64,000 bases of DNA from an uncultured Acidobacteriota bacterium (GTDB lineage Bacteria > Acidobacteriota > UBA6911). Position 1 is the first letter of the stretch. Each line of letters opens with the position of its first letter. The notes under the pieces are model-generated. The model was not told the origin of the DNA, made no database searches, and saw nothing but the letters and a program-made list of their open reading frames with translations. The position numbers were made by a program, and so were the translations under genes. Below are positions 5,051-29,754 of this stretch, one piece after another. The stretch spans positions 96,001-160,000 of the forward strand of contig CAWHCF010000008.1 of assembly GCA_963827655.1 (NCBI GenBank). Direction: 5' to 3'.

Positions 5051-5340
5051 GTCGACTGGTTCATAAATACGCTAACGTATTGGGCAGAGCCTGTACGAGT
5101 CGGCTCTGTTTTTGCCTAGGGCCGAAGGCCCGTTAGTGAGTAGCCCCGCCCGTCAGGGCGGGGTCTTCAAGACCCCACGGACACGAGGTCCGAAGGACCG
5201 GCACTCCGGCTGTGTCGCACCTTCGGCGCTCTTCTTAACGCCCGCCCAATCCCGGCCTTACGGCCGGGCCTACTCTCTGTCGGCCTTTCAGGCCTCAACT
5301 GCTTCAAAATACGTTAAAGCGTAATTGCGAACAGCAGCAC
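5051..5340. mobile_element. MITE-like element B (same end family as A, opposite orientation) with a different REP-like interior
   Basis: Ends GTCGACTGGTTCATAAATACGCTAACGTATT and AATACGTTAAAGCGTAATTGCGAACAGCAGCAC, flanked by TTA/TTA. Interior hairpins GGGCCGAAGGCCC, CCCCGCCCGTCAGGGCGGGG, GGTCCGAAGGACC, CCCGGCCTTACGGCCGGG, GGCCTTTCAGGCC. Confidence 0.7.
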
Positions 5341-23072: not shown

Positions 23073-25751
23073 ATGATTGGAGCCCAGTCGAATCGTCGTG
23101 AGTTCTTGATCCATTCCGCGGATGCGCCTCTTGCGTGGGGGGCTCCGTGGGCAGGTTTCTTTGAGCAAGCCCAGGAAAAACAAGAAGCATCCTCTGCCTA
23201 TTGCGGAACCGCATTTCCCGGACCGGCTGCACCTGTTTGTCTGGCGAAACTGGGAACTGGCGAATGCGGACCGGAATTGGCTCAGGTGCTGGCCACTACG
23301 GAAGAGAAGGATACTTGAGAATGGTTCCTCGATGGGATTCCTGCCAAACCGCGTTTGTCGGCAGACCAGCTGCGGAGAATCTATGTAACGGTCATCCGAC
23401 AGAATTGGCACATTCTTTCAGAAGAACAATTGATCGAGCTGTTGGGATGGAACCGGGCGCACTACGAGTTCACTCTGAGAGAGGACGATTTCCTTTCCCA
23501 CAAGCTGGGCGCTGAAGCCACGATGTGAACAACTCCGTTACGAGGCTCCATCGGCCCAAGCAAGGGCGCGGGCTCGAGGAGATCAAGCGTCTTTTGAGCG
23601 ACACCTTTGGTCCATCATTCGGCGAAGCAGGCGAAGAGCCGTTTCATTTCATCCAGGAACTGAGCGGTACTCATGTCTCAAAGCTGCGCGATCCCAACCG
23701 GGAGGTGGCTGAGGATGAGGTCGATCTGAACGGTTGGACCCTGCTGGAATCCGGCCAGCACGGGGCGCGGGAACCCTTGGAGCAGTTCCAGGCATACCTG
23801 CAGTCGGCATTCGACTGCTCGACCAGTCTTTCAGCCGGAACTCAGGTCCCCGACCTCTCGAGCGCTGTTGTTTTCTATTGAGGCGGTCGGCCGGGGAAGT
23901 TCCTGACAGTTTCGCCGATCACCTGTGAACGCGATCGGATCACGGTAGTTGCGCCCAGCCAGCTTGGATTGCGCCAGGCGATTTACTGCATGCAGGACAT
24001 GATGGCGGAGCGCGGCGGTCCGTTCTTGCCCACGGGAACGACGCGGCGAGTCAGGCGCCTGACGCCTTGCTATCTGTATTCGTATTTTGCGCTGTATGGC
24101 GATCCCTTGATGGAGGAGGATATCGATCCCTTCCGGAGGCTATCTGCAGAAGCTTGGCCGACTGGGTGTCAACGGCGTCTGGCTGCAGGCGGTGCTGCGC
24201 AATCTAGCTCCCTCGAAGATCTTTCCGGAATTCGGACAGGGCTGGGAAAAACGGCTTCAGAACCTCAACCGGCTGGTTGACCGCGCGGGACGGCAAGGGT
24301 CTGAAGGTCTACCTGTACATTAATGAGCCGCGGGCGATGCCGGAGGCGTTTTTCTCCAAGCATCCGGAAATGAAAGGCGCGCCTGATCGCCACGACCCAA
24401 GATTTTTTGCTCTCTGTACCTCGGTCCCGGAGGTGCGGGAATGGCTGGCCAGCAGCCTGGCCCATGTTTTTTCCCAGGCGCCTGAACTGGGGGGAATCTT
24501 CAGCATCACGATGTCAGAAAATCTGACCAATTGTTACTCTCATGGGAATGCCCGCTCTTGTCCACGCTGCTCCAGCGCGCCAAGGCTGGGAGGTCGTGAG
24601 CGAAGTCATCAGAACCTTTCGAGACGGAGTTCGGCGAAGCAGCAAGGATGCGAGGGTGATTGCGTGGGATTGGGGCTGGGGAGAAGACTGGGTCCGAAAC
24701 GGCGCGGATCCGGAAAAGGTAATCCGCAATTTTCCCGGAGGATGTCCAGCTGCTCAGCGTCAGTGAATGGAACCAGCCCGTAAACCGCGGCGGGTTTCAG
24801 CACCAAGGTGGGCGAGTATTCGATTTCGGTCACCGGGCCCGGCCCGCGCGCGACCCGACATTGGACTGCGGCCCGTCAGACGGGCAAAGGCATCCTGGCA
24901 AAGGTCCAATTCAACACCACGTGGGAGATATCCGCCGTTCCCTACATTCCGGTAGCCGAATCTGATCCAGGACCATGTTGAGAATCTGTTAAGAACCGGT
25001 ATTCAGGGATTTCAGTTGTCCTGGACTGTCGGGGGCTATCCCGTCGCCGAACCTGGAAGTCGCGAAGGAGTACTACTATTGGCCGGTTCCGGAACGGGAG
25101 AAGGTGCTGCACAACGTGGCAGCTCGACGATACGGGAAGGAGGCGGCTCCCCTGGTAGTCAATGCCTGGGAGGCTTTCAGCAAAGCCTTTCAGGAATTTC
25201 CGTACGGGGTGGCCATATACACCATTCCGACCCAGCACGGACCCTCCAATCCCTTGCGTTTGAACGAGACTGGATACCGAGCCCGAATGATTCTTCTGCC
25301 CTACGATAATTACAAGAGTTGGGTAGGGCCTTACCCGCCTGAAATCGTACAGAGTCAGTTCCGCAAGATGTCTGAGCTCTGGGACGAGGGTCTGAAGGGT
25401 TTTCGCGCGGCTCTGACCCGGGTTCCGCCCCACCGGATGGAGGAAGCCCAAAGAGATCTCAGGATAGCCGAAACCTGCTTCCTGCATTTTCGAAGCGTAG
25501 CCAACCGGCTTTAGTTTTACTTGCTTCGAGAGCAACTGAAGTTGAGACCCGAGGATAAGCAAGCCGGCGCCGAAATGGCGGAGATTGCCCGAGATGAGAT
25601 GGAGCTGGCCAGACGCCTCTACAGCATCGCGAGGCGTGATTCGAGGATCGGCTACGAAGCGACCAATCATTACTACTACCGGCCGCTGGATGTGGCCGAA
25701 AAGGTGCTCAACTGTGAAGACGTGATCCGTCGCTTGACGCAGTTCAAGTGA
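23073..25751 (+). pseudogene. Large Tat-exported hypothetical protein (possibly glycoside-hydrolase-like), heavily disrupted
   Basis: SNRREFL leader. Protein-like blocks (FPDRLHLFVWRNW, YLYSYFALYGDPL, KVYLYINEPRAMP, ITMSENLTNC, IAWDWGW, IGYEATNHYYY) are scattered over many frames. In-frame TAG at 25512-25514. Confidence 0.7.
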
Positions 25752-25789: not shown

Positions 25790-26210
25790 GAAAACGTCCA
25801 GGGGGGCAAGCATCCGGATGTGAATTGGGGTTTTCTGGAATTCGAAGGGGGAGCGGTAGCGTGTATCGAGACGCACTGGCTTATCCCGGAGCGCGCCGGC
25901 GTCGTCACGAATGACGCCATGCAGATTATTGGCACGGCGGGTATAGCCGATATCCATTTCGTGCCCTCAGGTCTCTCTGTGTGGAGAAACGATGGAGCAG
26001 AGGCGGCAAATGTTTCTTATGACGCCTGGTTTGAGGGTCAGCTCAGAGGCGCAATCAAAGAGGAAATCGGTTATTTCGTCGATTGCGTGCGCAAGGGCAA
26101 GCCACCGGCGGTGATCACGCCGCGAAGAGGCTCTCCAGGCATTGAAGGTTGCCTTGGCACTGGTGAGTTCCTCAGAAGAAAGCACCGTGAAATCAAGTCT
26201 GAACGAGCGC
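25790..26210 (+). pseudogene. C-terminal fragment of a Gfo/Idh/MocA oxidoreductase
   Basis: FLEFEGGAVACIETHW...IIGTAG...EIGYFVDCVRKGKPPAVITP then EALQALKVALA in another frame. The NAD-binding N-domain is absent. Confidence 0.65.
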
Positions 26211-26266
26211 TCAGACCGGCCCGACTTTGCCGTCTGCGCAGCTGCTGCGTTCCAGGCGAGGGTTTT

Positions 26267-26577
26267 CTAGGAGCGAAGCTTGCTTCGCCATCCCCGCCTG
26301 GGAGGCCGCCCGCTATCGCCAGAATGATCGACAAGGTGTCCTTCTCGGCGACGGGTGTCTCAAGATCCTTGAGAAAGCGAACATCCTCATCGTTCAGATA
26401 CAGGTTGATAAAACGGGAGGCCTTGGAGTCTGAAGAGAAGAAGCGGGCCGCTGCATCGGGAAACCGGACTTTGAATTTTTCCAGCACTTCGCCGACGGTT
26501 TTTCCGTCGAGCACCACTTCCGACTCCTGTTCGGTGTACTGGCGAAGAGGGGTAGGAATTCGCACCATCACACTCAT
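26267..26577 (-). CDS. MoaD/ThiS/CysO-like ubiquitin-fold sulfur carrier with C-terminal extension (3' end uncertain)
   Basis: VRIPTPLRQYT, RFINLYLNDEDVRFL..LETP and SIILAIAGG (Gly-Gly ends at 26305). Start overlaps the stop of the upstream gene. Confidence 0.88.
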
Positions 26578-27848
26578 TATGTAGCTCCCTGGAGCTGAAC
26601 GCGCGATTCCGAGGTCGAAGAACTCGCGCTTTGGTACCAGTTCTGAAAATCCTTGAGAGAAGAGGATATGTGGACGGAACCGTTCAGTCGAGCGGTTATG
26701 CTCTCGATTGCCTTGTAGCCGTTGCCGGTAATGGCGACCACCACGGATTGATCACGAGGGATGCGGCCCTGTTCGACCAGCTTCTTGCAGACTGCAAGCG
26801 TGGTTCCCCCTGCGGGTTCCGCGAAAATTCCTTCGGTTTCGGCGAGCAATTGAATTGCCTGCAGTATTTCATCGTCCGTTGCGGTCTCTCCCCAACCTTG
26901 CGTCTTTCGAACGGCCTCGAGCACGTACGGCCCATCGGCGGGGTTTCCGATCGCGATAGAGTGAGCGATCGTATTCGGCTTGACGGGGCGGATTTCGGCG
27001 CTGCCGGAGCGCAGCGCCTGAATTACCGGCGCGCAGCCCGCAGCCTGTGCTGCGTAGATCTTGCTGTCTCCCGTCACCCAACCCAGGTGCTTTAGCTCCT
27101 CATATGCCTTGAGCACCTTGGGGAGCAACGTACCTCCGGCGGTCGGCAGAATCGTGTGCTGCGGAAGGCGCCAACCCAATTGTTCGGCGATCTCGAAGCC
27201 GAGCGTCTTGGCCCCTTCAGTGTAATAGGGACGCAAGTTCACGTTCACAAATCCCCAGGGATACTGGCTGCCAATTTCGCTGCAGAGCCGGTTTACGTCG
27301 TCGTAATTGCCTCGAATCCGAACAATCTGGGGACGGTAGACGCCCGCTCCGACAATTTTCGCCGGTTCCACGTTGTCCGGCACGAACACGAAACAGCGCA
27401 AACCAAGGCGTGCGGAATGTGCAGCGACCGAATTGGCGAGGTTTCCGGTCGAGGCGCAGGCGATCGTGTCGTATCCGAGCTCGAGCGCCCTGGTAATCCC
27501 GACCGAAACCACGCGTTCCTTGTAAGAAAGCGTAGGATGATTGACCGAATCATCCTTGAGGTAGAGTTCCTCAAGGCCGAGGGCACTGGCCAGCCGCGTG
27601 GCGCGAACCAGCGGTGTGAATCCGGATTGGAATCCAGTCTTGGGTTGCCCCTCGATCGGTAGCAGATCGCGGTAGCGCCAGAGATTCGCTGGACCTCGAG
27701 ATACTGCGTCGCGCGAGACGGATCGAGCGATCGCCTGGTAGTCGTAGGCCACTTCAAGCGGACCGAAACAGGAGGTGCACACGAACTGGTCCTTGGCGCT
27801 ATAGCGCTCGCCGCATTCTTTGCAGATTAACCCAGTCATGAAGCTCAC
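26577..27848 (-). CDS. Threonine-synthase-family PLP enzyme (possibly homocysteine-forming)
   Basis: N-terminal CxxC..CxxC, NHPTLSYKER PLP-lysine motif, ASTGNLANS, SIAIGNPADG, EGIFAEPAGG and ITGNGYK. Confidence 0.92.
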   Translation of the reverse strand: MSFMTGLICKECGERYSAKDQFVCTSCFGPLEVAYDYQAIARSVSRDAVSRGPANLWRYRDLLPIEGQPKTGFQSGFTPLVRATRLASALGLEELYLKDDSVNHPTLSYKERVVSVGITRALELGYDTIACASTGNLANSVAAHSARLGLRCFVFVPDNVEPAKIVGAGVYRPQIVRIRGNYDDVNRLCSEIGSQYPWGFVNVNLRPYYTEGAKTLGFEIAEQLGWRLPQHTILPTAGGTLLPKVLKAYEELKHLGWVTGDSKIYAAQAAGCAPVIQALRSGSAEIRPVKPNTIAHSIAIGNPADGPYVLEAVRKTQGWGETATDDEILQAIQLLAETEGIFAEPAGGTTLAVCKKLVEQGRIPRDQSVVVAITGNGYKAIESITARLNGSVHISSSLKDFQNWYQSASSSTSESRVQLQGAT

Positions 27849-27872
27849 GAAGCATTTCCCCTTTCTAATGGC

Positions 27873-27903
27873 AAAAAAAAACCCTTTCCGGGGAGAAAGG
27901 GTT
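27873..27903 (-). terminator. Intrinsic terminator, expression platform of the SAM riboswitch
   Basis: Minus strand AACCCTTTC-TCCCCG-GAAAGGGTT followed by a T run, between the aptamer and the ribosome-binding site. Confidence 0.85.
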
Positions 27904-27924
27904 GGCAAAATTCAGCGTTTTCAC

Positions 27925-28032
27925 CAACTCATCTTCCAGAAATTCTTTCTGCAGGAATTAGCACCATGCTGTCGAAACAGCTGGTTGCCGTGGCTTCACC
28001 GGGCCAGTCCCTCCGCCACTCTGGATAAGTTG
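27925..28032 (-). ncRNA. SAM-I (S-box) riboswitch
   Basis: Minus strand CTTATCCAGAG-TGGCGGAGGGACTGGCCCGGTGAAGCCA-CGGCAACC..GGTGCTAATTCC..GAAGATGAG carries the SAM-I consensus blocks and P1 pairing. Confidence 0.96.
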
Positions 28033-28178: not shown

Positions 28179-28646
28179 TTAGCGAGGGGTATTGGAAGGT
28201 TTGGGCGCCACGCTTCCAGCCTGGCGCTCTCGTCGGGTCTTCTCCGCGACTTCGTCCAGTTTCTGTTGCTGCTCCGGGGACAGGACATTCTTTGTCCGGA
28301 TGCGCATGCTGAAGGTGGTGCGCTCCAGCGCCGTGCGCGCCACCTGAACTTGTTCAAACGCCTTCATGGCTGCGGCTTCGTCCACCTGCTCCTTTGATAA
28401 GATATCGGAAAGATCGAGCTGGCGTTTGTCCAGTTCTGCCTTTTCATCGATGAGCCGCCTGCGGTGCTCCACCCAGATCGCTTCAATTTTCCCCTGCTGA
28501 TCCTGGGTGAGTCTCAACTCTTCCGCAAGGCGCCGGTCCTTCCACCAGGCACCCGGTGGAAACCCAGGCACGCGCATCTGGGCATAGCCCGCGATCTCGA
28601 TGCCGATAATCATGACAACAATAAATCGAAGTTCGCGCCTGGTCAT
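28179..28646 (-). CDS. Spy/CpxP-like periplasmic protein
   Basis: Signal peptide, ELRLTQDQQGKI and VLSPEQQQKL (LTxxQ motifs). Confidence 0.8.
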   Translation of the reverse strand: MTRRELRFIVVMIIGIEIAGYAQMRVPGFPPGAWWKDRRLAEELRLTQDQQGKIEAIWVEHRRRLIDEKAELDKRQLDLSDILSKEQVDEAAAMKAFEQVQVARTALERTTFSMRIRTKNVLSPEQQQKLDEVAEKTRRERQAGSVAPKPSNTPR

Positions 28647-28655
28647 CGAGTCGCC

Positions 28656-29162
28656 TTATTGGGGCTGAGGAGATTCCTGAAATGACGGATCTAATAGAGA
28701 GTTGGGCCAGGAATCGTAGACCGGAAGATAGTTCGATTCCCAGTGACTCATGCTTGTGTCAAGATCCCGAAGGAATTGATCGTCCCATGAATCCGTCTTG
28801 CTCGCCAGAATTGAACTGGATTGATTTTGAGGCGGCGCATGAACCGTGAGCAGGAAAGCTACCATCATCGAGCAGGCTGCGAGTGCCATCCACTGCCAAC
28901 CCCGCTGCGGCCGCCAGGACAAGCCAGGATGCGCCGGAGTTTCACTCGATGCCTTGAGCCGGGCGTAGAAGGTATCGGCGAAACCTGGAGAGGGGTCGAC
29001 TGACGGATATGCATCCAGCGACTTCCAGGCCATTTTCATCTGGGTATGGAACGCGGAGCACGCCGAACACGCCTTCAGGTGATCGTCGACTGCGCCGAGC
29101 CGGAGATCAACTCCGTCCTCCACGTTCTCGGCGAGAATTCGACGCACGGTTCTACAGCGCAC
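28656..29162 (-). CDS. Zinc-finger (HxxxCxxC) transmembrane anti-sigma factor
   Basis: DHLKACSAC motif plus one TM helix. Directly downstream of an ECF sigma. Confidence 0.85.
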   Translation of the reverse strand: MRCRTVRRILAENVEDGVDLRLGAVDDHLKACSACSAFHTQMKMAWKSLDAYPSVDPSPGFADTFYARLKASSETPAHPGLSWRPQRGWQWMALAACSMMVAFLLTVHAPPQNQSSSILASKTDSWDDQFLRDLDTSMSHWESNYLPVYDSWPNSLLDPSFQESPQPQ

Positions 29163-29163
29163 G

Positions 29164-29754
29164 TTAAGCCTTACCTTCTTTCAAATACGGGCGGATGCGA
29201 TCACGCAAGCGCAGCTTACCCCGGTGAATGTAAGTCTTCACCGCCGGCTCGGTACAGTTCATCACGTCCGCGATTTCTTTATAACTCAAACCTTCATAGC
29301 GTCGCAGAATTATTGCGATTTTCTCATTCTTGGGCAACCCCCGGATGATCTGCCGAATCACCTTCCCCATCTCTGATTCGACCAGCTTCTGTTCGGCATC
29401 GGGTTCTCTGGCCCGCACTTCTTCCTTCCTGGTGATCTCATTCGGGCCGAACCCGAACGGCGACCTTCGGTTTCGTCCCGCGGCTTTCAATCCTACGTTC
29501 GTGGCAATCCGGTAAAGCCACGCGGAGAATCGTGCGCGGGGCTCGTAGCTATGCCGGGCCCGGTATATTCTCAGGAATACGTCTTGCGCAAGTTCTTCGG
29601 CCTCCGCCCGGTTATTGACAATCTTGTAAATGAAATTGACAATAGCCTTGTGATATTTGTCAAGAATCTGCTCAAACGCGGCTTCTTCTCCCTGTTGAAA
29701 GGCCACCATCAGAGCCGTATCGGGATCGCAAGGAGCCTTGGGAGCGCCGGTCAT
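29164..29754 (-). CDS. ECF sigma-70 factor
   Basis: AEELAQDVF, FSAWLYRIATN and EGLSYKEIADVM...VKTYIHRG motifs. Confidence 0.93.
   Translation of the reverse strand: MTGAPKAPCDPDTALMVAFQQGEEAAFEQILDKYHKAIVNFIYKIVNNRAEAEELAQDVFLRIYRARHSYEPRARFSAWLYRIATNVGLKAAGRNRRSPFGFGPNEITRKEEVRAREPDAEQKLVESEMGKVIRQIIRGLPKNEKIAIILRRYEGLSYKEIADVMNCTEPAVKTYIHRGKLRLRDRIRPYLKEGKA

Follow-up and report, generated by a model that had tools for sequence, protein, structure and literature searches.

A SAM-I Riboswitch Precedes a Probable MetM–MetO Operon in an Uncultured Acidobacteriota Bacterium

Introduction

Why should a gene that profile searches assign to threonine synthase (ThrC) stand behind a riboswitch that senses S-adenosylmethionine (SAM)? 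The question is raised by a locus in a 64,000-nucleotide stretch of DNA from an uncultured Acidobacteriota bacterium (contig CAWHCF010000008.1 of assembly GCA_963827655.1; the whole stretch is called the window below). There, on the minus strand, a SAM-I aptamer precedes a ThrC-family gene, which overlaps a gene for a small ubiquitin-like sulfur carrier. An earlier reading of the DNA letters alone (the sequence-only reading) had proposed that the two proteins make homocysteine in a carrier-dependent way, with reference to a MetM/MetO route from Streptomyces. We consider it very probable that the locus is a metM–metO operon under a SAM-I termination OFF switch, whose products form homocysteine from O-phosphohomoserine (OPH) with the help of the thiocarboxylated carrier.

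That Streptomyces route is real, being cited in the GapMind 2026 paper (PMC13759103), in its preprint and in PMC12172450. Table 2 of GapMind 2026 gives MetO, Mec, MoeZ and MetM as experimentally backed in Streptomyces, after Hasebe et al. 2024, and describes MetM as a MetO-thiocarboxylate-dependent homocysteine synthase and MetO as a sulfur carrier (PMC13759103). Appendix 4 of the GapMind preprint states that in Streptomyces albulus the maturation of MetO requires Mec, and that MetM is often misannotated as threonine synthase. In PMC12172450, a SAM riboswitch is placed upstream of S. albulus metM, and a Microcystis ThrC encoded beside a metO-like gene is said to be 51.6% identical to MetM. The route is also named in a 2026 preprint, which sets the plant branch point between methionine and threonine at OPH, with cystathionine gamma-synthase on one side and threonine synthase on the other (bioRxiv 10.64898/2026.09.15.751699).

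Since it was published in 2024 and is already part of GapMind 2026, the MetM/MetO route is not new. The S. albulus thiocarboxylate pathway of MetM, MetO, MoeZ and Mec reportedly appeared in Applied and Environmental Microbiology, its MetM being UniProt A0A059WBP2 and its MetO A0A059W7F4. A related system is that of Mycobacterium tuberculosis (CysM, CysO, Mec and MoeZ), in which a pyridoxal 5′-phosphate (PLP) enzyme uses a thiocarboxylated ubiquitin-like carrier to turn an O-phospho amino acid into cysteine. Plant threonine synthase, for its part, is activated by SAM.

Results

The SAM-I Leader

Searched with Infernal, the leader matched the SAM-I model RF00162 over its entire length (model positions 1–108 of 108), with 97.9 bits (gathering score 44.4; E = 2e-22). 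The aptamer was the sole match in the genome, none being found elsewhere among the 150 of 576 candidates that were scored. At a spacing of 22 bases downstream of the aptamer there is a hairpin (27903–27880) with 10 pairs and a 4-nt loop, followed by nine T (nine U in the RNA), so that the aptamer and terminator described by the sequence-only reading are both in place before the ThrC-family gene.

The terminator hairpin alone has a computed fold energy of −12.7 kcal/mol. An alternative fold, at −21.5 kcal/mol, pairs the 3′ strands of the aptamer with the terminator region, including the 3′ arm of the terminator. Aptamer, terminator and competing fold together match the arrangement typical of termination OFF switches, and on the strength of these computed folds the leader would be expected to act as one.

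One contig assembled from a soil RNA-seq library matched 27805–28017 without a mismatch; it comprises the 3′ part of the aptamer, crosses the terminator and reaches 43 nt into the coding region. Other contigs from the same library cover parts of the enzyme gene. In some runs, stretches of the locus were left uncovered, and no conclusion is drawn from this. Read-through transcripts are thereby only weakly indicated, because DNA carry-over is possible in an RNA library.

The Two Genes

The enzyme most likely starts at the GTG at 27848, which stands 9 nt after a Shine–Dalgarno sequence and gives a protein of 423 residues (the first ATG in the frame is at 27839). The N-terminus predicted from this start, MSFMTGL, parallels the MSFVAGL of the closest relative, locus L026 (L, C and G numbers are our own for loci, contigs and genomes, respectively). 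The residue numbers used below refer to the 421-residue translation of 26577–27842, beginning one codon before the ATG at 27839; 2 must be added for the GTG-start protein. The stop codon of the enzyme (TAA, 26577–26579) shares one base with the ATG of the carrier at 26577. This TAATG overlap bears out the coupling of the two genes that had been proposed, and the carrier matched the ThiS family PF02597 at 49.4 bits over residues 5–91.

Table 1. Features of the SAM-I leader and the two overlapping genes (window positions)
Feature	Position	Strand	Basis
SAM-I riboswitch aptamer (RF00162)	27926..28031	-	covariance-model match
Intrinsic terminator, expression platform	27873..27903	-	terminator scan and sequence
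Shine–Dalgarno AAAGGGG (27858-27864) and probable GTG start (27846-27848)	27846..27864	-	sequence and translation
MetM-like gene, ThrC-family PLP enzyme with N-terminal 4-Cys zinc-ribbon motif	26577..27848	-	profiles, signature residues, clade
MetO-like sulfur-carrier core, 91 aa, ThiS/MoaD beta-grasp, ending AIAGG	26305..26577	-	PF02597
77-codon extension after Gly-Gly, non-conserved	26071..26304	-	stop 26071-26073; antisense to 3′ end of converging gene remnant

The enzyme scored 225.8 bits with PF00291 and 185 bits with Bacillus subtilis ThrC. In an alignment with homologues, its catalytic Lys108 and its N-terminal cysteines C7, C10, C22 and C25 are invariant; Lys108 is also found in all of 81 MetM-like sequences (81/81), which comprise the window enzyme and 80 related loci. 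Homologues are very numerous (all 8000 candidates scored had E ≤ 1e-30), and among the 120 listed, all those named by their source are called threonine synthase. Misannotation as thrC, which the sequence-only reading had anticipated, is thus what the names show, and the appendix of the GapMind preprint concurs. Carrier homologues bear the source-given name molybdopterin synthase sulfur carrier subunit.

Departure from Threonine Synthase

In five solved ThrC structures (1uim, 2zsj, 6cgq, 2d1f and 1e5x), the motif G-x-x-K-x-x-G around the PLP lysine, the T of STGNT and the motif R-x-EGQKT are constant. A profile alignment matches G58, K61, G64, T88, R160 and Q164 of Thermus thermophilus ThrC with L105, K108, V111, L135, Y207 and A211, respectively, of the window enzyme. 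Because residues constant in all five structures are replaced (L105, V111, L135, Y207 and A211), we did not file the gene as ThrC.

The replacements are constant among the 81 MetM-like sequences, a constancy that is partly circular, the 80 related loci having been retrieved by peptide patterns that span two of the motifs. Leu135 lies outside those patterns and is found in 81/81. When 150 representatives were collected with HMMER and no patterns, [L/V]-R-Y-[S/A/G] at positions 135, 204, 207 and 211 occurred in 88; 15 of the others are fragments and 47 differ, mostly with patterns like A-N-x-K. T88 and R160 of ThrC are, we assume, contacts of the substrate phosphate. If they do hold the phosphate, their loss would fit a gamma-replacement that has no need to retain it.

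The genome contains 10 ThrC-family matches, three of them over the TIGR00260 cut-off, and the second thrC that the sequence-only reading had wished to see is among them. A paralogue on contig C1 matched Arabidopsis threonine synthase (1e5x) at 557.9 bits over residues 10–451, i.e., in full length, where the window enzyme reached only 103.7 bits; the C1 protein also retains G, G, T, R and Q at the five positions. Threonine synthesis seems to be covered separately, since the C1 paralogue is a plant-type ThrC. Of the other paralogues considered, that on C44 scored 625 bits with NF006050 and that on C31 fell below all ThrC cut-offs.

The window enzyme is 82% identical to its homologue in L026, 53% to that of Microcystis novacekii (L093) and 51–52% to two homologues from Actinomycetota; identity to the paralogues is 36% (C44), 29% (C31) and 29% (C1). 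In a search seeded with an actinobacterial protein, the 120 homologues listed were all Acidimicrobiia-type entries. For phylogeny we used FastTree, a quick method, on 79 rows: the window enzyme, the three paralogues, 12 of the 80 related loci and representatives, namely all full-length ones without the signature and every second full-length one with it, fragments being left out. The tree is unrooted, a midpoint root serving for drawing only. A split with SH-like (Shimodaira–Hasegawa-like) support of 100 separates 42 rows, including the window enzyme, L093 and both Actinomycetota loci, from 37 rows that include all three paralogues. The enzyme accordingly groups, as had been suggested, with MetO-linked and SAM-riboswitch-linked homologues and away from the ThrC paralogues. 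Paralogy, identity together with phylogeny, and active-site positions all support placing it with MetM rather than ThrC.

A Sulfur Carrier with a Tail

G90 and G91 of the carrier are invariant in the carrier alignment, and its core is 43% identical to a CysO-like domain encoded elsewhere in the genome. The sequence-only reading had let the gene end at 26267. This proved wrong: the Gly-Gly lies at 26305 and the frame stays open as far as its stop codon, giving an open reading frame (ORF) of 168 residues in which Gly-Gly is not C-terminal in the primary product.

The extension matched no Pfam family and shows no similarity to the L026 carrier after its GG. In carriers whose cores are 93–99% identical to that of the window, the tails measure 4, 15 and 32 residues (the range in relatives being 0–32); only that of 15 residues resembles the window tail, and the likeness is confined to the first dozen positions. 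In near-identical strains, public contigs agree with the window up to 26273, about 10 codons past GG, and continue into unrelated sequence, so the gene order is broken immediately after metO. This rearrangement seems to have produced the long tail by read-through. The tail is not due to one miscalled base, because the other two frames would still yield tails of about 13 or 31 residues.

Tails are not peculiar to the window. Of the carriers at the 70 related loci, 49 stop directly after GG, 14 extend 1–8 residues beyond it, five have NIL-type tails of about 50–100 residues, one is fused to an E1-type activating enzyme (L057) and one is cut by a contig end. That extensions are so common and unconstrained implies obligatory proteolytic maturation. 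In the simplest reading, the window tail is probably a disposable propeptide, cleaved off by a JAMM peptidase. This agrees with the published requirement of Mec for MetO maturation, and the same genome offers a precedent in a CysO::E1 fusion (see below). A non-terminal Gly-Gly calls for processing rather than for exclusion of the protein as MetO, because maturation by Mec belongs to the published pathway. It is possible that the tail impairs the carrier in the window's strain.

The carriers with NIL-type tails lie at L042:4152-4784, L043:4262-4837, L050:3206-3856, L079:3008-3535 and L055:3032-3475. The four tested matched the NIL domain PF09383 at 38.9–59.7 bits, while L055, at a contig end, was judged by similarity. 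PF09383 occurs together with PF02597 in 12 of the 120 carrier homologues listed, most of them 171 residues long. In L057:4229-5296, from an Actinomycetota metagenome-assembled genome, the carrier gene next to the MetM-like one continues past Gly-Gly into a ThiF-type E1 sequence (as judged by eye); this second, independent carrier–E1 fusion is located in the methionine locus itself. Seeming MetM–MetO fusions in L096 and L102 were rejected, being long stop-to-stop frames in GC-rich DNA that are out of frame.

The gene remnant that converges on the tail (window 25820–26270, plus strand) shows a frame change near 26122. A contig of a related strain (X2, about 94% identical) is without one base at 26122, where the frame ITPEEALQALK would continue to about 26270; the break is either a real frameshift or an assembly indel. 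A 254-residue ORF at 25820–26584, whose first part is the upstream frame of the remnant, matched no Pfam family. Further on, window 23355–25751 (plus strand) holds a run of short ORFs in changing frames (among them 23525–23881, 23969–24280, 24277–24783, 25104–25514 and 25521–25751), of which that at 25104–25514 matched nothing in Pfam. The run resembles one larger gene disrupted by frameshifts, or else a group of gene fragments.

Conserved Context

Named genomes yielded at least 600 matching loci, of which we surveyed the 80 best. A similar carrier ORF was present on the same strand within a 3-kb flank in 70 of these 80. Twenty-three of the 80 have a SAM-I aptamer upstream on the same strand (14, 2, 3 and 4 in successive batches of 20), at up to about 300 nt from the gene in 20 cases and 414–1100 nt upstream in L032, L037 and L070. 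The titles of the aptamer-positive records name Acidobacteriota, Vicinamibacteria, several planctomycete lineages, Binataceae, Deltaproteobacteria, Verrucomicrobiota, Chloroflexota and Actinomycetota; the cyanobacterial loci among the 80 had no aptamer upstream. Threonine synthesis is hard to reconcile with the locus, because a SAM riboswitch is kept before the gene across phyla.

The Rest of the Pathway in the Genome

The genome, 90.3% complete, encodes homoserine kinase (ThrB, 267.9 bits; cut-off 168.25), which would supply OPH, and MetH (1782 bits); for MetE there was only a partial match of 57.9 bits. We found no match to homoserine transsuccinylase (HTS/MetA) and no credible MetX in this assembly. 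The sole MetX hit is partial, at 95–104 bits against cut-offs of 331–500, and the same protein fits NF005071 (hypothetical protein) at 504 bits. The cut-off of TIGR01392 was uninformative (0/14 control genomes passed), and NF001209 was used instead.

The genome also encodes the accessory functions known from the published pathway. At C29:93234-96048 (L023:2735-5549) there are, in a row, a CysM-like gene, a JAMM gene and an ORF of 478 residues. The JAMM (Mec-like) protein matched PF14464 at 104 bits and is the only JAMM match in the genome. The 478-residue ORF joins a CysO-like ubiquitin-fold domain, which ends IAGG, in frame with a MoeZ-type E1 (ThiF) and a rhodanese domain. As its Gly-Gly is internal, the CysO-like domain has to be cut free. 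Contig C49 carries another ThiF-family gene. These proteins may serve MetO as well. The MoeB/MoeZ and JAMM proteins that the sequence-only reading had hoped to find are thus encoded in the C29 cluster, and the absence of metA and metX that it had looked for holds so far as the assembly goes.

Distribution in the Phylum

As a sample of the phylum we took 150 other genomes, related ones among them not being independent. A MetM-like match of at least 534 bits was present in 28 of the 150 (the next best score was 379 bits), while MetX was over cut-off in 27 and MetA in 12.

The plant-type ThrC (C1:60981-62369, i.e., L002:1339-2727, minus strand) has close orthologues (at least 626 bits) in seven of the 150 genomes, six of which also contain a MetM-like gene. 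In G028, the plant-type ThrC and MetM-like genes share a strand, with 39 nt between them (C76:24577-25887 and 25926-27131). This co-occurrence is no more than suggestive, because the genomes concerned are phylogenetically clustered.

Neighboring Genes and Other Observations

Upstream of the riboswitch and on the same strand, window 28179–29754 (minus) has three ORFs, which encode an ECF-type (extracytoplasmic function) sigma factor (29164–29754), a possible anti-sigma factor with a weak DUF3379 match (28656–29162) and an LTXXQ/Metal_resist periplasmic protein (28179–28646). They appear unrelated to the methionine operon. Elsewhere in the window, two divergent matches to the Acido-Lenti-1 small RNA, about 90 nt apart, were found at 5118–5163 (minus) and 5250–5295 (plus), with 50.1 and 39.3 bits (gathering score 37). 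At C44:44595-46969 (L003:1336-3710), the gene of the C44 ThrC paralogue precedes one for an AlaX-like protein with tRNA_SAD and DHHA1 domains, the stop of the former overlapping the start of the latter.

Discussion

The operon would work as follows. At low SAM, the leader would be read through, and MetM and MetO would be made. MetM, a homologue of threonine synthase, would bind OPH on its PLP. The MetO precursor would be trimmed to expose Gly-Gly, the likely protease being the genome's single JAMM (Mec-like) peptidase, and the trimmed carrier would be adenylated and thiocarboxylated by the MoeZ-type E1 of the C29 cluster with its rhodanese domain. With the MetO thiocarboxylate as sulfur nucleophile, MetM would carry out a gamma-replacement on OPH, and the resulting homocysteine would be converted to methionine by MetH. 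At high SAM, the aptamer would fold, the terminator would form and the branch would be turned off. Every check that could be computed supports the carrier-dependent homocysteine synthesis put forward in the sequence-only reading, although the idea is not novel.

With the S. albulus pathway the locus shares a ThrC-homologous enzyme beside a ThiS-fold carrier, a SAM riboswitch upstream and the threonine synthase label, as well as a MoeZ-type E1 and a JAMM/Mec protein for carrier maturation, and OPH from ThrB. It differs in belonging to another phylum (close homologues are titled Acidobacteriota), in the 77-residue non-conserved tail of the carrier and in the E1, which the window's genome encodes in another cluster, as a fusion with a CysO-like domain. 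The M. tuberculosis CysM/CysO system is similar in that its carrier depends on a JAMM peptidase and a MoeZ-type E1; a cluster of this kind is found on C29 of the window's genome. The window enzyme, unlike M. tuberculosis CysM, is of the ThrC type rather than the CysM/CysK type, presumably acts on OPH and is under SAM-I control. With ThrC itself it has in common the PLP fold type II, the same region of the catalytic lysine motif and, presumably, the substrate; the five replaced residues, the separate clade, the SAM-I control and the linkage to a carrier set it apart.

Several points weigh against the MetM–MetO assignment. The connection to the characterized S. albulus proteins is transitive, running through the Microcystis homologue. 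Furthermore, according to PMC12172450, the Microcystis protein failed to act as a full MetM in vivo and had threonine-related activities; function may therefore vary within the family. The enzyme also passes equivalog models for threonine synthase, with 263.2 bits for TIGR00260 (cut-off 167.1) and 303.2 bits for NF006050 (cut-off 303). The carrier would be inert unless processed, since 77 residues follow its Gly-Gly, and the operon includes no protease gene. In 10 of the 80 related loci, among them L027–L029 from the next-closest Acidobacteriota, there is no carrier within 3 kb, so that a dedicated adjacent carrier is not universal.

Other objections concern the pathway as a whole. With a genome that is 90% complete, MetA and MetX may have been missed. 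Moreover, the genome encodes three full-length Cys/Met-family PLP enzymes, none at the sulfhydrylase cut-off and one of them paired with a cystathionine beta-synthase-like gene, and because of these a plant-like, OPH-dependent cystathionine route is possible. In the phylum sample, complementarity is only moderate: MetX or MetA is found in 2 of the 28 genomes with a MetM-like gene (G016 and G086; G146 has two sub-threshold MetX fragments) versus 37 of the 122 others, and 85 of the 150 have none of MetM-like, MetX and MetA. Leaving out two genomes flagged as unpublished (G049, with a MetM-like gene, and G024, without), the figures become 27/148, 2/27 and 37/121. The complementarity is weak, and it runs in the expected direction.

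Could the enzyme make homocysteine from OPH with free sulfide or some other sulfur donor, the carrier being dispensable or, in this strain, crippled by its tail? The carrier-less loci would be explained, the more so as L027–L029 retain the SAM-I aptamer; the window carrier cannot work without proteolysis, and its tail arises from a rearrangement just after the gene. Yet the carrier core is strongly conserved in close relatives while the tails drift, the start of the carrier gene overlaps the stop of the enzyme gene and the pair is kept in seven-eighths of the loci surveyed. The same genome has, besides, a JAMM peptidase and, in the CysO::MoeZ fusion, a precedent for an internal Gly-Gly. We therefore regard a carrier-free reaction as improbable. 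Another SAM-controlled sulfur product is conceivable, such as cysteine made from O-phosphoserine in the manner of CysM/CysO, or a carrier-bound intermediate on the way to a SAM-related compound. Substrate and product lie beyond what sequence can tell, and the resemblance of the carrier to the CysO-like domain of the genome would suit such a view. The cysteine route, however, is already covered by the separate cluster of CysM-like, Mec and CysO::MoeZ genes, the enzyme is ThrC-type rather than CysM-type, and the characterized family member makes homocysteine, which leaves this proposal with a slim chance.

The view embodied in current annotation is that the enzyme is a second, genuine threonine synthase, repressed by SAM, with the MoaD of molybdopterin synthase adjacent by chance. 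It can appeal to the two equivalog cut-offs and to the names of the homologues of both proteins. Nevertheless, there is no rationale for a SAM-I element before a threonine gene, although more than a quarter of the related loci keep one. The residues constant in the five solved ThrCs are replaced, whereas the plant-type paralogue still has the T, R and Q that correspond to T88, R160 and Q164 of T. thermophilus ThrC; the genome has that paralogue already, and the clade of the window enzyme is separate. The GapMind preprint, in its Appendix 4, is explicit about the mislabeling. A second threonine synthase is accordingly a highly improbable account of the locus, and MetM–MetO is the assignment that we retain.

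The co-resident plant-type ThrC permits a further, speculative thought. As at the plant branch point, OPH would be shared by a methionine branch and a plant-type ThrC, with SAM as a signal; the methionine branch here would consist of MetM and MetO rather than cystathionine gamma-synthase, and its control by SAM would be exerted by an RNA switch. SAM might then act at two levels, turning MetM/MetO off through the riboswitch and allosterically activating the plant-type ThrC. Since the Gly-Gly of both carriers is internal, the supply of sulfur for cysteine and for methionine would, in addition, depend on one and the same JAMM peptidase, which would serve as a common checkpoint. The C1 protein aligns from residue 38 of the Arabidopsis TS1 chain, so most of the N-terminal region is included. 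We nonetheless think this arrangement rather unlikely.

Conclusions

The known mechanism is unchanged by our analysis, and the points specific to this locus are modest: the carrier tail, the fused CysO::E1, the signature residues and the co-resident plant-type ThrC. Three things are added to the Streptomyces case, namely a signature (Leu135, Arg204, Tyr207, Ala/Ser211) that separates the clade from ThrC, SAM-I control of the enzyme conserved across several phyla, and the frequent, unconstrained extensions at the C-terminus of the carriers. The practical meaning is a correction of annotation, the labels threonine synthase and molybdopterin synthase very probably being misplaced here. Such mislabeling would lead to false predictions of methionine auxotrophy, or of a duplicated thrC, in this bacterium as well as in many soil Acidobacteriota, planctomycete, Binatia, Nitrospirota and cyanobacterial genomes.

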